Assembly (NCBI GenBank): GCA_043814765.1
Contig: JBDRJQ010000029.1
Location: 1 to 64,000, forward strand
From: Nanobdellota archaeon
Lineage (GTDB): Archaea; Aenigmatarchaeota; Aenigmatarchaeia; QMZP01
Direction: 5' to 3'
DNA length: 64,000 bases
A program made the position numbers and the translations under genes. Below the pieces are notes generated by a model. It was not told the DNA's origin. It did not search any database and saw only the letters and a list, made by a program, of their open reading frames with translations. Shown here one piece after another: positions 1-46,734 of this stretch (position 1 is the first letter of the stretch; every line of letters begins with the position of its first letter).

Positions 1-237
1 GAGCGACAGCAGAATGAAGGTCAGGCTGAAGGTCTTACCAGACAAGCTGAGCGGAGGTGCATGGCCGTCGTCAGTTCGTGCTGTGAAGTGTCGAGTTAAG
101 TCTCGAAACGAACAAGACCCGCGCCCTATGTTGCAACTGTGTTTTTTAATGCAAGCACTCATAGGGGACCGCTGGTGATGAACCAGAGGAAGGGGCGGTC
201 GACGGCAGGTCAGTATGCTCTTAATCCCCTGGGTTAC

Positions 238-1028
238 ACCAGGTTTGCAAGTTGATAATCGAGCTTGTTTTGAGCATTGAATCACTACCTAGTCTCATCT
301 TTCACATTGTTCTTTTATTTCAAAAAATCAAAAAGAACATGGAAAGATTTGATGATTAGAATTTTGTGATTCAAATGGCATCAAAACATCAAACCGTAAT
401 TACTCCAATCTTTGCGTACACGTTAGGTTTAATTGGTGGAGATGGAACAATTACAGAAAATCCAAAAACAGGAGAATATAGAATATCTGTAATTGATAAG
501 TGTCTTAAATTTCATCAAAATATAATAAAACCAAGATTTGAAGAGCTGTTTTCAGTGAAAATAGTAATTTCTAGCATAAAAACAAGAAAAGGTGAAACAA
601 CTTATAGAACATGACTGTGTTCTAAAAAAGTTGTTGAAATTTACAAAAAGGCTCAAATTCCAACCAAAAACAAGACATTTTCTATGAAAACACCAAAACC
701 AATCTTCAATTCATCCAAAGACTCTATTAAAGAGTACATAAAAGGATGGATGGATTCAGAAGGTTGGGTAACTAACAAAAAAGTTAGAAAACCTAACAAA
801 ATGTACATTTATCCTAGAATAGCATTTCACGTATCAAATAAGCAAATAAGAGATGATATTGTAGTACTGTTGCAAAGGTTTGGAGTGAATCCAAGTGTTT
901 GGAGATACAAAAACATGTATGGACTTCAAATAATTGGATTCGAAAAAGTCAGGAAATATTTGAAACAAATTGGTTTCAATCATCCTGATAAGATCCAAAA
1001 AGCTCGTAATTTGCAAGCTTGGAACCAA
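238..1028 (+). other. 16S rRNA BHB intron 1 (791 nt, after ~E. coli 1226) carrying a homing endonuclease gene
   Basis: Removal restores GGGTTAC|ACGCGGCCTACAA. Central helix GGTT(232-235)/AACC(1023-1026), bulges ACA(236-238) and AAA(1027-1029), 15-bp terminal stem 239-253/1008-1022. Confidence 0.93.
375..1028 (+). pseudogene. Double-motif LAGLIDADG homing endonuclease interrupted by in-frame TGA at 612-614
   Basis: Motif 1 YTLGLIGGDG (ORF 366-614) and motif 2 YIKGWMDSEG (ORF 684-1082) are in the same frame with an open linker between; C-terminal IGFNHPDK is typical. Confidence 0.85.
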
Positions 1029-1164
1029 ACGCGGCCTACAACGACTGGGACAATGAGATGCGACTCCGAAAGGAAGAGCTAATCTCCAAACCCAGCCCTG
1101 ATTTGGATTGAGGACTGCAACTCGTCCTCATGAAGGCGAAATCCCTAGTAGTCGCTGGTCACCA

Positions 1165-1236
1165 AACACCCTTTTTACGATAGCTACCGCTTATACAAAA
1201 AGCGTGTATGGAAAAATGTGAAAAGAGTGTGTGGAT
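1165..1236 (+). other. 16S rRNA BHB intron 2 (72 nt, after ~E. coli 1363)
   Basis: Helix TCAC(1159-1162)/GTGG(1231-1234), bulges CAA and ATT, flanking stems 1151-1158/1238-1245 and 1166-1178/1218-1230. Removal restores normal h43 length. Confidence 0.92.
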
Positions 1237-1351
1237 TCTAGCGGCGAATATGTTCCTGCTCCTTGCACACACTGCCCGTCAAGCCAACCGAGTGGGATTG
1301 TGACGAGCTCCTGGTTCTTGCCAGGATCAAGTTATAGTCTTGTGAGGTGGG

Positions 1352-1403
<52 letters not shown>

Positions 1404-2515: not shown

Positions 2516-3031
2516 ATGAAGGTAAAAGATGCAATTGAACAGAGAAAAAGCATCCGCAAATATTCAGATAAACAGATACCTGAAGAAATTATAAAAGAGC
2601 TTCTAATTGCCGCACAAAAAGCACCATCTGCAAAGAACGTGCAATCTCATAAATATTTTATAGTAAAAAACAAAGATGTTATAGAAAAATTAAAAAAGGA
2701 GAAAGCATTTGAACAACCATATGTTTACGATGCTCCACTGATTGTCGTTTGTTGTGCAAATCCACAACTATATCCGAAAATGGAAAGTGCTGATAGTTCT
2801 TCAGATGAATATGCTTTGATAGATTTATCAATTGCCGCTTCCTTTATGGTTCTTAGGGCAGTTGAATTGGGTCTTGGTTCTGTGTTCGTGGCATGGGTAT
2901 ATCCTGACAAGATAAGAAAGGTTCTCGGAATACCTGAAGAATATATTATTCCGTTTGTTTTACCGATAGGTTATCCTGCAGAAAATCCTAACCAAAGGCC
3001 TAGAAAAGGCTTGGATGAAATAACATTCTAG
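2516..3031 (+). CDS. Nitroreductase family protein
   Basis: RKSIRKY, APSAKNVQ, AVELGLGS and IGYP motifs. Confidence 0.93.
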   Translation: MKVKDAIEQRKSIRKYSDKQIPEEIIKELLIAAQKAPSAKNVQSHKYFIVKNKDVIEKLKKEKAFEQPYVYDAPLIVVCCANPQLYPKMESADSSSDEYALIDLSIAASFMVLRAVELGLGSVFVAWVYPDKIRKVLGIPEEYIIPFVLPIGYPAENPNQRPRKGLDEITF

Positions 3032-3437: not shown

Positions 3438-3469
3438 TAGGCAAGTTACTCCTGACAAAAAAAGGACTA
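3438..3469 (+). other. 5' arm of the 23S pre-rRNA processing stem (pairs with 6601-6631)
   Basis: TAGGCAAGTTACTCC(3438-3452) is the exact reverse complement of 6617-6631, followed by a BHB-like motif with one 4-nt bulge. Confidence 0.85.
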
Positions 3470-3921
3470 AAGACGTTACATGGTGAATGGCTTGGCTCGA
3501 ATAGTGAGGAAGGACGTGGTAAGCTACGATAATCCTGGGGTAGCAGCATACATGCTTTGAACTCAGGGATTCCGAATAGGACTTCCTGCTATGCGTTCCC
3601 ATTAGGGAACACTTACGCGGCGAATTGACACATCTTAGGAGCCGCAGGAAAAGAAAGCAAATGCGATTCCCTTAGTAAGAGCGACTGAAAAGGGAACAGA
3701 ACAAACCGAATCCCTATAGGAAACTATAGGGAAATGTGGTGTTTGGACTCGGGTTCTGCCTAACTCTTGATTCTGAAGTTTGCTGGAAAGCAGTGCCGTA
3801 GAGGGTGATAGCCCCGTAAGAGGAAAGAGAAGGATGATACCGAGTATCCAGAGTACTGCCAGTTGAATATCTGGTGGGAATGTGGGAGACAATAACTCCT
3901 AATTCTAAATATACTTCGAGT

Positions 3922-3959
<38 letters not shown>

Positions 3960-4914
3960 TATCCGTAATAGGAGATGAAAAGATCCTGAAGCCATGTAAC
4001 TATAGGTAGATATGGCTTGTTCAGTTCTTTTGAAGGAAGATCCGCAAGGGTCTAATACGAAGAAAGAATATAACGAGTTATATCGTCGGTTTTGAAACAT
4101 TAGACAAGGAGTTTGCTTCTGTGGCGAGGTTAATTATAGTAGCCGTAGCGAAAGCGAAACCTACGCAGCCTGCAAGGTAGGTGGGTATGAAAGTGCCCAA
4201 GTCACAGGGGTAAGACCCGAAGCCGGTCGATCTAGCCGTGGGTAGGGTGAAGTCTCGGGAAACCGAGATGGAGGCTCGCACCCGTGTTGAGATTCAAATC
4301 GCTGGGATAACCTGCGGCTAGGGGTGAAAAGCCAATCGAGTTCGGCGATAGCTGGTTCCTTCCGAAATGAGTCGTAGCTCAGCCTCGCTGGAGATTGATA
4401 AGGGGGTAAAGATACTGATTAGGTAATCAAGGAACGAAAGTTCCAGTTACTTTGTCAAACTCAGAATACCTTATCGTTGTAGAAGGCGGGAGTGAGGATC
4501 CGGGGTAAGCTCGAGATCCGAAAGGGAAAGAACCCATCTCAAGGTTAAGGTCCCAAAATGATTGTTAAGTGAGAAAGGGAGTTTTCAACCCCAGACAGTG
4601 GGAATGTTGGCTTAGAGGTAGCCACCTTTTAAAGAGTGTGTAATAGCTCACCCACCGAGGTTGGAAGCCCTGATAATGGACGGGACTAAACAGTCTACCG
4701 ATACCTTGAACCCCGAAAGGGATGGAGTAGGAAGGTATTCCGTGGGGGCAGAAGCTTGGATGTAAATTCATGTGAACCCCATGGAAAAAAGAATCTTGTC
4801 AATAGTAACAGCATAGTAGAGTGAGAATCTCTACCACCTTATGGGCTAGGGTTCCTCAGCAACGATTATCAGCTGAGGGTTAGTCGGTCCTAAGGCAAAT
4901 CCTAACTGGAGTTT

Positions 4915-4946
<32 letters not shown>

Positions 4947-5445
4947 TGAGAAGATACGTGCGGCGACGCAAGACTTATTCCTGACGCTTTGAGATAATCC
5001 AACCATGGAAACGTGGCTAACCATTTAAGCCTGTGGAGTATCGTCATGGTGAGAAGCAGGTGAAGCTGGGAACGGCTCCGCAAGGAGTTTGGATAAATCT
5101 TAGAGCCAGTGAAAAGGGAATGAGTAAGGATTCTTCTTAACCGTACCGAGATCCGATACTGGTGTCCCTCGCTGAGAAGGCGAAGGTGTGTTAGGAGAAA
5201 TCAGTCTAGGGAATTCGGCAAAATAGCCCCGTAACTTCGGAAGAAGGGGTGCCTATTGCTCTAATTTAATTAGAAACAGTAGGTTGCAATAACAAGGGGA
5301 GTCCAACTGTTTAACAAAAACTTAGGGGACTGCTAGTCGGAAACGATTTGTATAGTCCCTGAGGCCTGCCCAGTGCCAGTCGGTTAAATTCGGGTACAAC
5401 CGGATGAAGCCCTGGTAAACGGCGGCGGTAACTCTGACCGTCTTA

Positions 5446-5483
5446 GTTGGTGGTCAACAAGTGATGTAGACTATCTAGGATAT
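5446..5483 (+). other. 23S BHB intron (38 nt, after ~E. coli 1927)
   Basis: Removal restores CGTCTTA|AGGTAGC. Helix GTCT/GGAT, bulges TAG and ATA, internal hairpin. Confidence 0.92.
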
Positions 5484-6021
5484 AGGTAGCGTAATCCCTT
5501 GCCGTTTAATTAACGGCCCGCATGAACGGCTTAATGAGATTCCCACTGTCCCAGACTGATGCCTAGTGAACTTAATTTCCTGCGCATATTCAGGAGTCCT
5601 CCAGTGGGACGAGAAGACCCCGTAGATCTTTACTACAGCCTGTTGTTGCGATATGGTGACGATTGTATAGTGTAGGTGGGAGCGATGCGGTCATGGCGAG
5701 AGCTATGGCTAAGGCGCCGATGTAACACCACCCTTTTGTTATCATATTGCTTACCCTTTAAGGGGACATCAACTGGTGGGTAGTTTGACTGGGGCGGTAC
5801 ACCCTTGACATCTTATCAAGGGTGCCCTAAGATTTCCTCATCGAGGTCAGAAATCTCGAGAAGAGTGTAAGGGCAAAAGGAAGTCTGACAGGAAACTTGA
5901 CAACAAGGTTTCCTGCCGCGAAAGCGTGGCCTAACGATCCCCTGTGCCTCATTAATTGGAGGCCAGGTCTGACAGAAAAGTTACCTCGGGGATAATGGAG
6001 TTGTGGCGCGCGAGAGTCCAC

Positions 6022-6130
6022 ACTTCGTTTCTCGATCCACTAAAATAAAGTATATTGTCTTTTGAGACATAGCGCTAGCTGTGTTGATGAAAGGAGATGT
6101 ATAACCAGGAATGGAGAAATGAAAGGTCAA
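6022..6130 (+). other. 23S BHB-like intron (109 nt, after ~E. coli 2477, H89 loop)
   Basis: Removal restores GAGTCCAC|ATCGAC. Helix GTCC/GGTC (one mismatch), bulges ACA and AAA, 10-bp stem 6024-6033/6114-6123. Confidence 0.88.
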
Positions 6131-6403
6131 ATCGACCGCGTTCATTGCTTCTCCGCCGTCGGCTCGGCTCTTCCTGGACGTGCAGCAGCGTCCAAGGGTG
6201 GGGGTGTTCACCCATTAAAGAGCCACGTTAGCTGGGTTAAATACGTTGCGAGACAGTATGGTCTATATCTACTGGAGGTGTTGGTTACCTGAAGGGAAGA
6301 TACAATCAGTACGAAAGGAACATTGTGTCGTGGTCACTAGTGTACCGGTTGTGTGATTGCAGTGCCGGGTAGCTATACCATAGCGGATAAACGCTGAAGG
6401 CAT

Positions 6404-6440
6404 TCGAAAGCTTGGTCAGTTGAACAAGCTGTCGGTCTAT
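6404..6440 (+). other. 23S BHB intron (37 nt, after ~E. coli 2754)
   Basis: Removal restores GCTGAAGGCAT|CTAAGC. Helix AGGC/GTCT, bulges ATT and ATC, internal hairpin. Confidence 0.92.
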
Positions 6441-6797
6441 CTAAGCGTGAAGCCGCCCCTGAAAAGAGGTAACCGTTGTTCGACCTGGTAGGCGACTATC
6501 GGTAAGAACAGGAAGGTCCTGTAGACGACAGGGTTAATGGAATCGGGGTGTACGTGCTAAGGTCACGAGGCATTCAGCCCACGATACCCAAACACCTGAC
6601 TGGTCCTTTGTTAAAAGGAGTAACTTGCCTAAACCTATTTTTTTCAAAATTGGTTTGGCTTAGCCACAGCTTTAATAGTATATACTAAAAGGGATATAAA
6701 ATAAAAAAGCGGGACTATTCAAATAGTCCACCTAAGCATTGACAACAAATCACGCTCAATTAAATCTTTTTAAACCCCTCAAATAACATTTCTATAA

Positions 6798-26915: not shown

Positions 26916-27071
26916 GCCTCGTTAGCTCAGTCGGTAATGTGGTTTTTCCAAAAACCGTGTCGGTAGAGAGCGCAGCGTTGGTAAGAAACCTTTTTCATAA
27001 AAGGTTTCATCCAAAAGGAGTTAACACGTCCAAAAACGCTGAGGTCCCGGGTTCAATTCCCGGACGAGGCT
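26916..27071 (+). tRNA. tRNA-Thr(GGU) with two introns: D-loop (26937 to ~26965/26967) and 37/38 (26984-27035)
   Basis: GCCTCGT/ACGAGGC acceptor stem, CAGCG-TT-GGT-A|A-CGCTG anticodon arm with TTGG/CCAA BHB helix, GTTCAATTCC T-arm. Confidence 0.92.
26986..27016 (+). repeat. Dispersed palindromic repeat copy inside the tRNA-Thr intron
   Basis: AAACCTTTTTCATAAAAGGTTTCATCCAAAA. Confidence 0.75.
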
Positions 27072-45753: not shown

Positions 45754-46734
45754 TTATTGCTGACTGTTTAGGATTATCTTCTTTATTTCAATAGGCTCCT
45801 TGTTGCTTGGTTCTCTGATAGCCTTTCTTAGCATAATAAGTCTTTTCTTTGGTCCTGGAATAGAGCCGTGTAGTAGCATGTAGTCTCCTTTAACTTCGCC
45901 GTATTTCAAGAAACCGCCTTTAGGTGTTATGTCTCCTTTACCAATCTTCAGGACGCGCTTGTTGTATTCTGTTCTTGTTTGGAAACCGAGCTGACCAGGC
46001 ATTGCAATCTTTCCTGGAAACACTCTGCCCTGTCCAACAGAACCTATGTTTCCAATATGCCTTCTCTTTTTTTCGTGCTTTCTTCCGCGGATTGTGACAC
46101 CGAACCTTTTTACAGGTCCTTGAAAACCTTTTCCTGTGGTTACTGCTCTAACATCAGTCCACTCGCCTTCCTTGAAGACTTCCTCTGGTTTTATTTCTTT
46201 TCCAAGCTTCTCTTTGGCGTAATTCCACTTGTCTTCTAGCTTGCCGCCAAGATTCAGTTCAAACAACTCTGGTGTCTTTTTGCCAAAAGCATCTCTTGGC
46301 TTTGTGCAAACCAGAAGTCTTAAATTAAAATGATTGCTTATATCGCTGTTCATTTGTTCAATGTCTTTTTTGTTGTCATTTTTTTCTCTTATAGGTGTTT
46401 TACGATTCAGGTCTTTGGGTAATTTTTCAGCCCAGATAGTTTTTGTGTTTTTGAGGCCATAAGCTGTCTTTTTGTAAGTCTTTATTCCGCAAACAATTAT
46501 TGAAGGGCATTCTAAAACAGAAACAGCCTCTGTAATATCATGACCGTTTGTCGGTGAGTTTTTACGGTTGTCTGTATAAATTACCTGTACCATTCCTGCC
46601 TTGTAGCATGCAAAGTTTAGTGGCACTGCTTCTGATGAATCAACATTACTCTTAAAGCTACTATATATCCTCTTTGCCCTTTTCTTTGGCCAGTATGCAC
46701 GAGAACCGGCAACTGGTTTGTGTCCCTTAGCCAT
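45754..46734 (-). CDS. rpl3: 50S ribosomal protein L3
   Basis: GSRAYWPKKRA, YKAGM, GKGFQGPVKR, RTEYNKR. Confidence 0.96.
   Translation of the reverse strand: MAKGHKPVAGSRAYWPKKRAKRIYSSFKSNVDSSEAVPLNFACYKAGMVQVIYTDNRKNSPTNGHDITEAVSVLECPSIIVCGIKTYKKTAYGLKNTKTIWAEKLPKDLNRKTPIREKNDNKKDIEQMNSDISNHFNLRLLVCTKPRDAFGKKTPELFELNLGGKLEDKWNYAKEKLGKEIKPEEVFKEGEWTDVRAVTTGKGFQGPVKRFGVTIRGRKHEKKRRHIGNIGSVGQGRVFPGKIAMPGQLGFQTRTEYNKRVLKIGKGDITPKGGFLKYGEVKGDYMLLHGSIPGPKKRLIMLRKAIREPSNKEPIEIKKIILNSQQ

Follow-up and report, generated by a model that had tools for sequence, protein, structure and literature searches.

Unchanged catalytic bases and an apparently re-coded second shell in the peptidyl-transferase centre of an order of Aenigmatarchaeota

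The peptidyl-transferase centre (PTC) of the ribosome is the textbook case of near-universal conservation. What, then, is to be made of a gene for large-subunit (LSU, 23S-type) ribosomal RNA (rRNA) in which at least ten bases of this centre differ together? The gene lies in a stretch of 64,000 nucleotides (nt) of archaeal DNA (the window: positions 1 to 64,000 of contig JBDRJQ010000029.1, assembly GCA_043814765.1; contig C29 of genome G000 in our numbering), and a reading made from the sequence alone had described its PTC as heavily rewired. Our answer, to which we assign a probability of roughly 0.8, is that this is the working 23S-type rRNA of an archaeon of the Aenigmatarchaeota (DPANN), in which the layer behind the catalytic site has been re-coded and the new letters fixed in a whole order.

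The gene gives a full-length match to the Rfam model of archaeal LSU rRNA, with high posterior probabilities and a score far above the cut-off of 50 (Table 1). It is the only LSU match in genome G000 (859,335 bases in 39 contigs; 88.2% complete, 1.2% contaminated). Bases were numbered after E. coli K-12 rrlH (L032:260-3163) by local alignment, and the numbering was cross-checked against the Infernal alignment to the archaeal model; a blastn search with the 3' half of the LSU gene against E. coli genomes gave no match. The substitutions listed by the sequence-only reading, and their coordinates, all proved correct. Two departures from the Rfam archaeal consensus can be added to its list, A2055C and U2572A. 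A third candidate, G2032U, was suggested by the local alignment and is a misalignment, the window having the archaeal consensus at 2032 according to Infernal.

The distribution of the changes points to a layered organization of the altered centre. In domain V, G2447, A2450, A2451 (5995), C2498, C2501, G2502, G2505 and U2506 are kept, and elsewhere U2552-U2555, G2583-U2585, A2600-A2602, G2061-C2063 and the P loop (UGGGGCGG) are kept as well, judged by alignment to E. coli and by Infernal. The bases that would touch the tRNA ends or the reacting groups (A2451, U2506, U2585, A2602, G2553, G2583, U2584, G2061-C2063, G2447, A2450, C2501, G2505 and the P loop) are thus among those unchanged, so that the chemistry of peptide-bond formation should be ordinary. 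The changed part would be the network of hydrogen bonds and stacking contacts that shapes the A-site cleft and the tunnel entrance (2055, 2452, 2453, 2499, 2500, 2503, 2504, 2572 and 2576), together with 2586 and the closing pair of the A loop, where C2551-G2557 has become a G.A apposition that Infernal marks as non-canonical. The sequence-only reading had proposed a natural alternative active-site architecture. That the variant is natural is supported by the sole LSU gene, by fixation across the order and by its presence in contigs from RNA libraries, but, as judged from the alignments, the rewiring is limited to the second shell and the tunnel entrance around an unchanged catalytic first shell; "active-site architecture" is too strong a term for this.

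We read individual sites in the window's order and in other families of the same phylum. Base tallies use loci with readable strands, the 5' strand being counted only where the 5' exon reads contiguously; counts that require both strands omit 12 of the order's 30 loci and 16 of the 60 from other orders, which have introns at 2449-2452 or are truncated. Of the order's 91 genomes, 52 (G000 among them) contain the core 13-mer, UCUCCGCCGUCGG, as against 2 of 280 genomes of the phylum's other orders, and the letters are the same wherever the strand is readable. Without G000, the matches by family (our labels f1 to f6) are 28/46 in f1, 14/23 in f2, 1/1 in f3, 4/5 in f4, 1/1 in f5 and 3/14 in f6. The two matches outside the order are in G246 and G256, and the LSU strand of G246 itself reads GGCGUCGCU. 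Within the order the haplotype is present in all 28 readable 3' strands and in all 18 contiguous 5' strands; G012, which lacks the exact 13-mer, differs solely at 2497, a bulged and variable base, and the two LSU copies of G011 and of G346 carry the variant in both cases. C2055 was read at 19 of 21 loci of the order, whereas 52 of 53 readable genomes of other orders have A2055. The A-loop sequence GGUGUUCAC occurs at 30/30 loci of the order, as do U2576 and A2572. A2586 occurs at 29/30; other orders have C or U at this position, with no A among the 12 commonest readings listed.

An exact 21-mer scan of one genome per species (185,579 species) returned 58 matches, 51 of them in rRNA context. 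The remaining seven are chance matches in bacterial records, about four being expected by chance. By record title the 51 comprise 20 Candidatus Aenigmatarchaeota or Aenigmarchaeota, 26 entries named archaeon or uncultured archaeon, 2 Nanoarchaeota, 1 Micrarchaeota, 1 Freyarchaeota and 1 Desulfobacterales; these overlap the genomes of the 13-mer count, and the two sets are not independent. Poor read support does not account for the variant, since independent assemblies carry the same letters (reads of the source sample were not among the evidence).

The altered bases are contact partners of one another. In E. coli, pseudouridine 2504 pairs with C2452 and A2453 with U2500, and in Haloarcula marismortui C2499 is contacted by 2453, 2500 and 2504, as described in the text of Nissley et al. 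(bioRxiv 10.1101/2024.11.12.623245). A simulation of the H. marismortui ribosomal subunit reports hydrogen bonds for U2504-C2452, U2504-U2500, U2500-C2452, U2500-A2055 and C2499-A2453, with A2055 stacked on U2504 and with 2055 and 2572 restraining U2504 (PMC4652758). All members of this simulated network are substituted in the window, where A2453-U2500 has become G-C, A2453.C2499 has become G.U, and both C2452.U2504 and C2452.U2500 have become U.C. We examined covariation in an alignment of 34 intron-free rows, 33 of them distinct. Of the 33 distinct rows, 29 have a standard pair at 2453 and 2500 (A-U 4, G.U 15, G-C 10), which bears out the covariation that the sequence-only reading had noticed, and the G.U intermediate survives in sister families. 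For 2453 and 2499 the number is 12 of 33 (G.U 11, C-G 1), a count in which the tool could not credit the canonical A.C. The 2452/2504 and 2452/2500 contacts are pyrimidine-pyrimidine in 33/33 rows. Helix 89 served as positive control and was 95.7% paired, both sides having changed in 5 of 7 pairs; in the slid-register control 89.0% of cells were paired, compared with 29.8-60.6% in slid registers. The latter control is the safer guide, because shuffle statistics overstate significance when rows are related. We infer that the contact geometry is preserved through joint change of the partners.

How such a centre could have arisen is suggested by the rest of the phylum. With positions 2496-2504 left unspecified, a search pattern hit 189 of the phylum's 371 genomes; sites were read in 60 genomes, which represent 28 other families. 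Three of the changes are phylum-wide among these 60, namely U2576 (59/60), A2572 (58/60) and G2551/A2557 (59/60), whereas U2504C is confined to the window's order, 2504 being U in 60/60 genomes of other families. We write haplotypes as 2452,2453/2499,2500/2503,2504, so that the canonical form is CA/CU/AU and that of the window's order UG/UC/CC. The 44 other-family genomes in which both strands could be read (62 genomes with the order included) hold 23 haplotypes besides the window's. A2503C alone (CA/CU/CU) occurs in f7, f11 and f13, UG/UU/CU in f14, and UG/UC/CU, a single step from the window, in f7, f15, f16 and f18. The others include UG/UC/UU (f18), UG/GU/xU (f17, f18, f19, f21, f22, f26-f28, f31 and f39), UG/AU/xU (f7 and f21), CC/AU/xU (f35 and f37) and UC/GU/UU (f37). 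One genome of f21, G133, has a strand typical of f11 and may contain a foreign contig; it was retained in the tables.

These haplotypes are consistent with a stepwise and partly compensatory path, in which A2453-U2500 would have passed through G.U to G-C, C2452.U2504 through U.U to U.C, and A2453.C2499 to G.U. G2576U, U2572A and the G2551.A2557 closure are common to the phylum, and A2503C/U and C2452U/A2453G to most, not all, of its families. C2499U and U2500C are predicted to have followed C2452U, A2453G and A2503C. U2504C, A2055C and U2586A would have been added at the base of the window's order, along with a finger of ribosomal protein uL3 that is longer by one residue (and that two other families have too). 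In a tree of uL3, a single gene with a midpoint root, the order is monophyletic (100/99), and its sister group (98/94) is a clade with f18 as the first branch. Since f18 has UG/UC/CU or UG/UC/UU, its early branching fits U2504C as the last step, as a single-gene indication.

Further variation at the same loops was seen in other orders. U2552A in the A loop (GGAGUUCAC or GGAGUCCAC) is present in 10 of 60 other-order genomes (L094, L106, L107, L141-L144 and L146-L148; f26, f27 and f29-f31); U2552 is the base that is 2'-O-methylated in E. coli. C2554 and/or C2555 (GGUGUCCAC, GGUGCCCAC) occur in f16-f22 (e.g. L091, L095, L104 and L108). U2059 (AGAGUAGAC or AACGUAGAC) was read in at least 16 of 53 readable other-order genomes, belonging to f21, f22 and f26-f30 (e.g. 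L128, L133-L135, L094 and L141-L147). It stands mostly with U2503 in the f21 genomes inspected and with C2503 in f26-f30; at the tunnel entrance, 2059 and 2503 are perhaps another pair that covaries.

The protein that approaches this part of the rRNA differs as well. Nissley et al. link how readily 2453, 2500 and 2504 mutate to the loop of uL3 that surrounds E. coli Q150 (10.1101/2024.11.12.623245, preprint text). The uL3 finger near the catalytic centre in the window, GSVGQGRVFPGK, is divergent, has no tryptophan and takes the form RV(L/F/I)PG; the four best matches in the PDB align to it with GPWHPARVM-WT (6skf and 9sra), GAFNPSRVS-WR (9nri) and GPQAPALMFTQ (9e6q). The Trp-His-Pro finger tip of 6skf and 9sra is found in none of the 51 aligned uL3s of the phylum, and G235 (f27) has a tryptophan one residue earlier. 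The one-residue-longer RV(L/F/I)PG form is present in 15/15 uL3s of the order and also in f15 (G103) and in two f22 genomes. The segment with E. coli Q150, measured from G..G to GQ.G, has 15 residues in RV(L/F/I)PG genomes and in E. coli, and 14 in 29 of 32 readable uL3s of other families (3 more are unreadable); MAFFT puts the extra residue at a different place from that of E. coli. The finger and the PTC thus appear to co-vary by lineage, which does not by itself prove contact with the RNA.

Table 1. Positions of the rRNA and uL3 features in the window (rRNA bases in E. coli numbering, with window positions of single bases in brackets)
Feature	Window positions	Strand	Details
LSU (23S-type) rRNA gene	3459..6611	+	RF02540, 2502.6 bits, model 1-2987; G+C 0.48
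2055-2063, CGAGAAGAC	5610..5618	+	C2055 for archaeal consensus A (5610); A2057 pairs with U2611; G2058, A2059, A2060, G2061, A2062, C2063 kept
Central loop of domain V, 5' strand, 2447-2454, GAUAAUGG	5991..5998	+	C2452U (5996), A2453G (5997)
A+U-rich insert in helix 89 loop, 109 nt	6022..6130	+	boundary uncertain by 1 nt; 24 nt after 2453, 19 nt before 2496
Central loop of domain V, 3' strand, 2497-2506, UCUCCGCCGU	6150..6159	+	A2497U (6150), C2499U (6152), U2500C (6153), A2503C (6156), U2504C (6157)
A loop, helix 92, 2547-2561	6200..6214	+	C2551G (6204) and G2557A (6210); U2552, G2553, U2554, U2555 kept
2572-2576, ACGUU	6225..6229	+	A2572 for archaeal consensus U (6225); G2576U (6229)
2583-2586, GUUA	6236..6239	+	U2586A (6239); G2583, U2584, U2585 kept
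uL3 gene, 326 amino acids (aa)	45754..46734	-	PF00297, 231.9 bits

Divergent archaeal PTCs are already in print, as the sequence-only reading had said. Nissley et al. (10.1101/2024.11.12.623245; published as Nat. Microbiol. 10:1940, 2025) report, in the preprint text, that clades within Thermoprotei and Methanomethylicia carry as many as six substitutions across 2447-2453 and 2500-2504 of their centres, and present a structure of the Pyrobaculum calidifontis ribosome with G2447A, A2453C, U2500C, C2501A and U2504C. Insofar as that text describes them, those centres and the one in the window share clade-wide variation at bases that are not singly mutable in E. coli, the retention of the invariant catalytic bases and a uL3 that differs near the centre. 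The window has five substitutions within the published ranges (2452, 2453, 2500, 2503 and 2504). In the allele set given for P. calidifontis, however, only U2500C and U2504C are common to both, the window keeping G2447 and C2501 and having G, not C, at 2453. Set against the alleles in the preprint text, C2452U, A2453G, A2497U, C2499U, A2503C, G2576U, U2586A, A2055C, U2572A and the G.A closure of the A loop are particular to the window. The A-loop changes U2554C/U2555C described there for Thermoproteota are likewise variation of helix 92, and the same changes occur in sister families f16-f22; the window, in contrast, keeps U2554 and U2555, its own change being the phylum-wide replacement of C2551-G2557 by G.A. 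The short uL3 loop next to A2572 of the published type also differs from that of the window, where the segment is one residue longer (15 residues against 14 in most of the phylum). Unlike the hyperthermophiles of Thermoprotei and Methanomethylicia, the window's lineage belongs to DPANN, has an rRNA G+C of 0.48 and is represented by relatives in RNA libraries from groundwater and aquatic sources. A low G+C content of rRNA generally speaks against a hyperthermophile. A term search of the preprint text found no mention of DPANN, Aenigma, A2503 or G2576, on which its figures and supplement may bear, and in one later paper Aenigmatarchaeota and 23S rRNA occur together only in a figure legend on hibernation factors. 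The sequence-only reading had allowed that the haplotype might be one already described as common. It is common within its own order, but we found no description of it in the literature searched. The haplotype, as read from these genomes, therefore resembles the divergent archaeal centres first described in 2024 and yet appears distinct from them.

Several of the changed positions are known from antibiotic resistance, and a different cause for the haplotype has to be considered: natural PTC inhibitors might have selected and maintained it, as an intrinsically multi-drug-insensitive ribosome, in place of drift and compensation. This explanation concerns the cause only, and we regard it as rather unlikely. 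G2576U is the common clinical linezolid allele. Resistance mutations from the laboratory or the clinic are known at 2452, 2453, 2499, 2500, 2503, 2504 and 2576, all of them changed in the window, and U2500C and U2504C, alone among its alleles, are the very ones cited for resistance of haloarchaea to linezolid, anisomycin or chloramphenicol in the preprint text (10.1101/2024.11.12.623245), which also proposes evasion of inhibitors as one consequence of divergent centres. Linezolid resistance arises by mutation of C2499, and in simulation it is C2452 and U2504 that contribute most to the binding of this drug (PMC4652758); A2503 is the target base of Cfr (10.1101/2025.09.18.677109). Nevertheless, A2453G, C2499U and A2503C are not among the resistance alleles cited in the consulted text of 10.1101/2024.11.12.623245 or PMC4652758. 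Resistance mutants are, moreover, single or double changes and usually costly, whereas the window has at least ten that co-occur, are compensated and are fixed throughout an order. The 23 further haplotypes among 62 genomes of the phylum and the fast-evolving, intron-ridden rRNA are explained no less well by a loosening of constraint in symbionts with small genomes than by selection through inhibitors. The sequence-only reading had held the centre to be probably insensitive to drugs of the A-site cleft. Whatever its cause, the re-coded cleft surface may bind drugs of the cleft and the tunnel entrance poorly, for which we see about even odds by analogy with the alleles of laboratory mutants.

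Another possibility is that the gene is a decaying or non-functional copy, or an artefact of assembly or binning, and that working ribosomes are made from an unassembled canonical copy. The incompleteness of G000 and its 39 contigs leave some room for such a copy, as rRNA operons are often missing from bins of this kind. We nonetheless consider this explanation very improbable, given the full-length match with its high posterior probabilities, the intact first shell and helix pairing, the identity of the letters across 52 genomes that were assembled independently (G011 and G346 having the variant in each of their two copies), the compensatory changes in helix 89 across the set and the high depth in RNA libraries.

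The RNA libraries bear on two features of the locus, the insert in helix 89 and the letters of the mature rRNA. We compared contigs of three RNA libraries, from three studies, and of one DNA run over 5560-6620. Infernal places 111 extra bases at the loop of helix 89. RNA contigs of all three studies join 6021 directly to 6131 (depths 2644.7, 146.3 and 81.1), with no RNA depth over 6028-6099, whereas the contig of the DNA run retains an insert of its own. The joined loop, GAGUCCAC followed by AUCGAC, equals that of E. coli in length. The insert is very probably an intron removed from the rRNA; intron-free relatives could yield the same joined contigs. A search for a bulge-helix-bulge (two 3-nt bulges and a 4-base-pair helix) gave no clean motif, and the minimum-energy fold joins the junctions at the foot of a long stem. 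Among relatives the helix 89 insert ranges from 0 to 347 nt. Many relatives also have inserts directly after 2449-2452, of 600-683 nt (L004, L007, L011, L014 and L029) or 33-49 nt (L020, L028 and L030); the window has none there.

The RNA contigs span both strands of the centre, with summed depths of 3338, 8779 and 169 in the bin 5992-6027 and of 15428, 832 and 180 in the bin 6136-6171. Editing of the rRNA, for example C-to-U at 2500, 2503 and 2504, could in principle restore a near-canonical mature molecule, three of the changes being U-to-C or A-to-C in the DNA; otherwise nothing speaks for it directly. At the changed positions (5996, 5997 and 6150-6157) no other letter was present in the RNA contigs of the three studies among the rows listed, which argues against editing and for abundance of this rRNA type in cells. 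Because the partner bases have changed in a compensatory manner, editing would also undo the compensation, and we find this explanation scarcely credible. Finally, the suspicion that the substitutions are an alignment artefact, raised by the 109-nt insert that separates the two strands of the centre, is refuted by six insert-free relatives of the order that align with E. coli 2440-2512 over 73 ungapped columns and have identical letters; 27 insert-free genomes of other families align over the same 73 ungapped columns.

A number of observations weigh against the interpretation of the gene as a working, order-wide and compensated variant. Its function is deduced from conservation. Genomes of the order are incomplete (88.2% for G000), and no strand could be read in 38 of the 91, so that a second, canonical operon may have been missed, and G050 carries two canonical LSU fragments (C42:4076-4106 and C78:429-459) beside its variant copy; these are likely contamination, as its bin, at 1.9 Mb, has roughly double the normal size. 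With a similarity of 90% or more, the RNA contigs could stem from relatives, and DNA can be carried over into an RNA library; most contigs from the groundwater and aquatic libraries show 90-99% similarity, and they are those of relatives. As to compensation, kinship of the sequences inflates covariation scores, 4 of 33 rows have no standard 2453-2500 pair, and in many sister families the base that G2453 faces at 2499 is G or A. Since the uL3 tree is that of one gene with a midpoint root, the proposed sequence of steps is tentative, and the longer uL3 segment runs counter to the published idea that a shorter uL3 loop permits the centre to vary.

The interest of a working variant of this kind lies in the number of bases involved, as single changes at several PTC bases inactivate E. 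coli ribosomes (10.1101/2024.11.12.623245, preprint text). A mesophile-type DPANN order in which essentially the whole second shell has been replaced would be a natural map of workable combinations, and the case argues against a tie between variation of the centre and high temperature. Its main value would lie in the series of viable intermediates across the phylum, including the G.U form of 2453-2500, and in the uL3 finger as a candidate for co-evolution. It bears on the engineering of ribosomes, a field in which mutants with several changed sites in the centre are difficult to obtain, and on the cost-free carriage of resistance-type alleles. One may go further and propose, tentatively and at somewhat less than even odds, that the distinct A-site cleft and tunnel entrance, together with the reshaped uL3 finger, are another way, found independently in nature, of keeping the same catalytic bases in position, intrinsically insensitive to a number of drug classes that act on the PTC and without the usual nascent-chain sensor A2503; the phylum would then keep stepwise viable intermediates between the universal centre and this one.

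The window starts within an archaeal small-subunit (SSU) rRNA gene, whose 3' part (model 934-1478, 545 positions) is spread over window positions 1-1402 with about 850 extra bases. Within them are two adjacent open reading frames (ORFs), 366-614 (+), with a LIGGDG-like motif identified by eye, and 684-1082 (+), with a LAGLIDADG_3 match (E 1.1e-09); the extra bases resemble an rRNA intron that carries the gene of a homing endonuclease, perhaps in two pieces. The spacer between the SSU and LSU genes holds further ORFs, 1529-2257 (+; 242 aa, no Pfam match) and 2516-3031 (+; 171 aa, nitroreductase family, E 4.5e-26), so that the rRNA genes lie about 2 kilobases apart and form no compact operon. 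ARAGORN called no tRNA across the window. Rfam tRNA models match at 2375-2431 (57 bases, 34.1 bits) and at 26916-27071 (156 bases, 44.9 bits), the latter presumably a tRNA gene that contains an intron.

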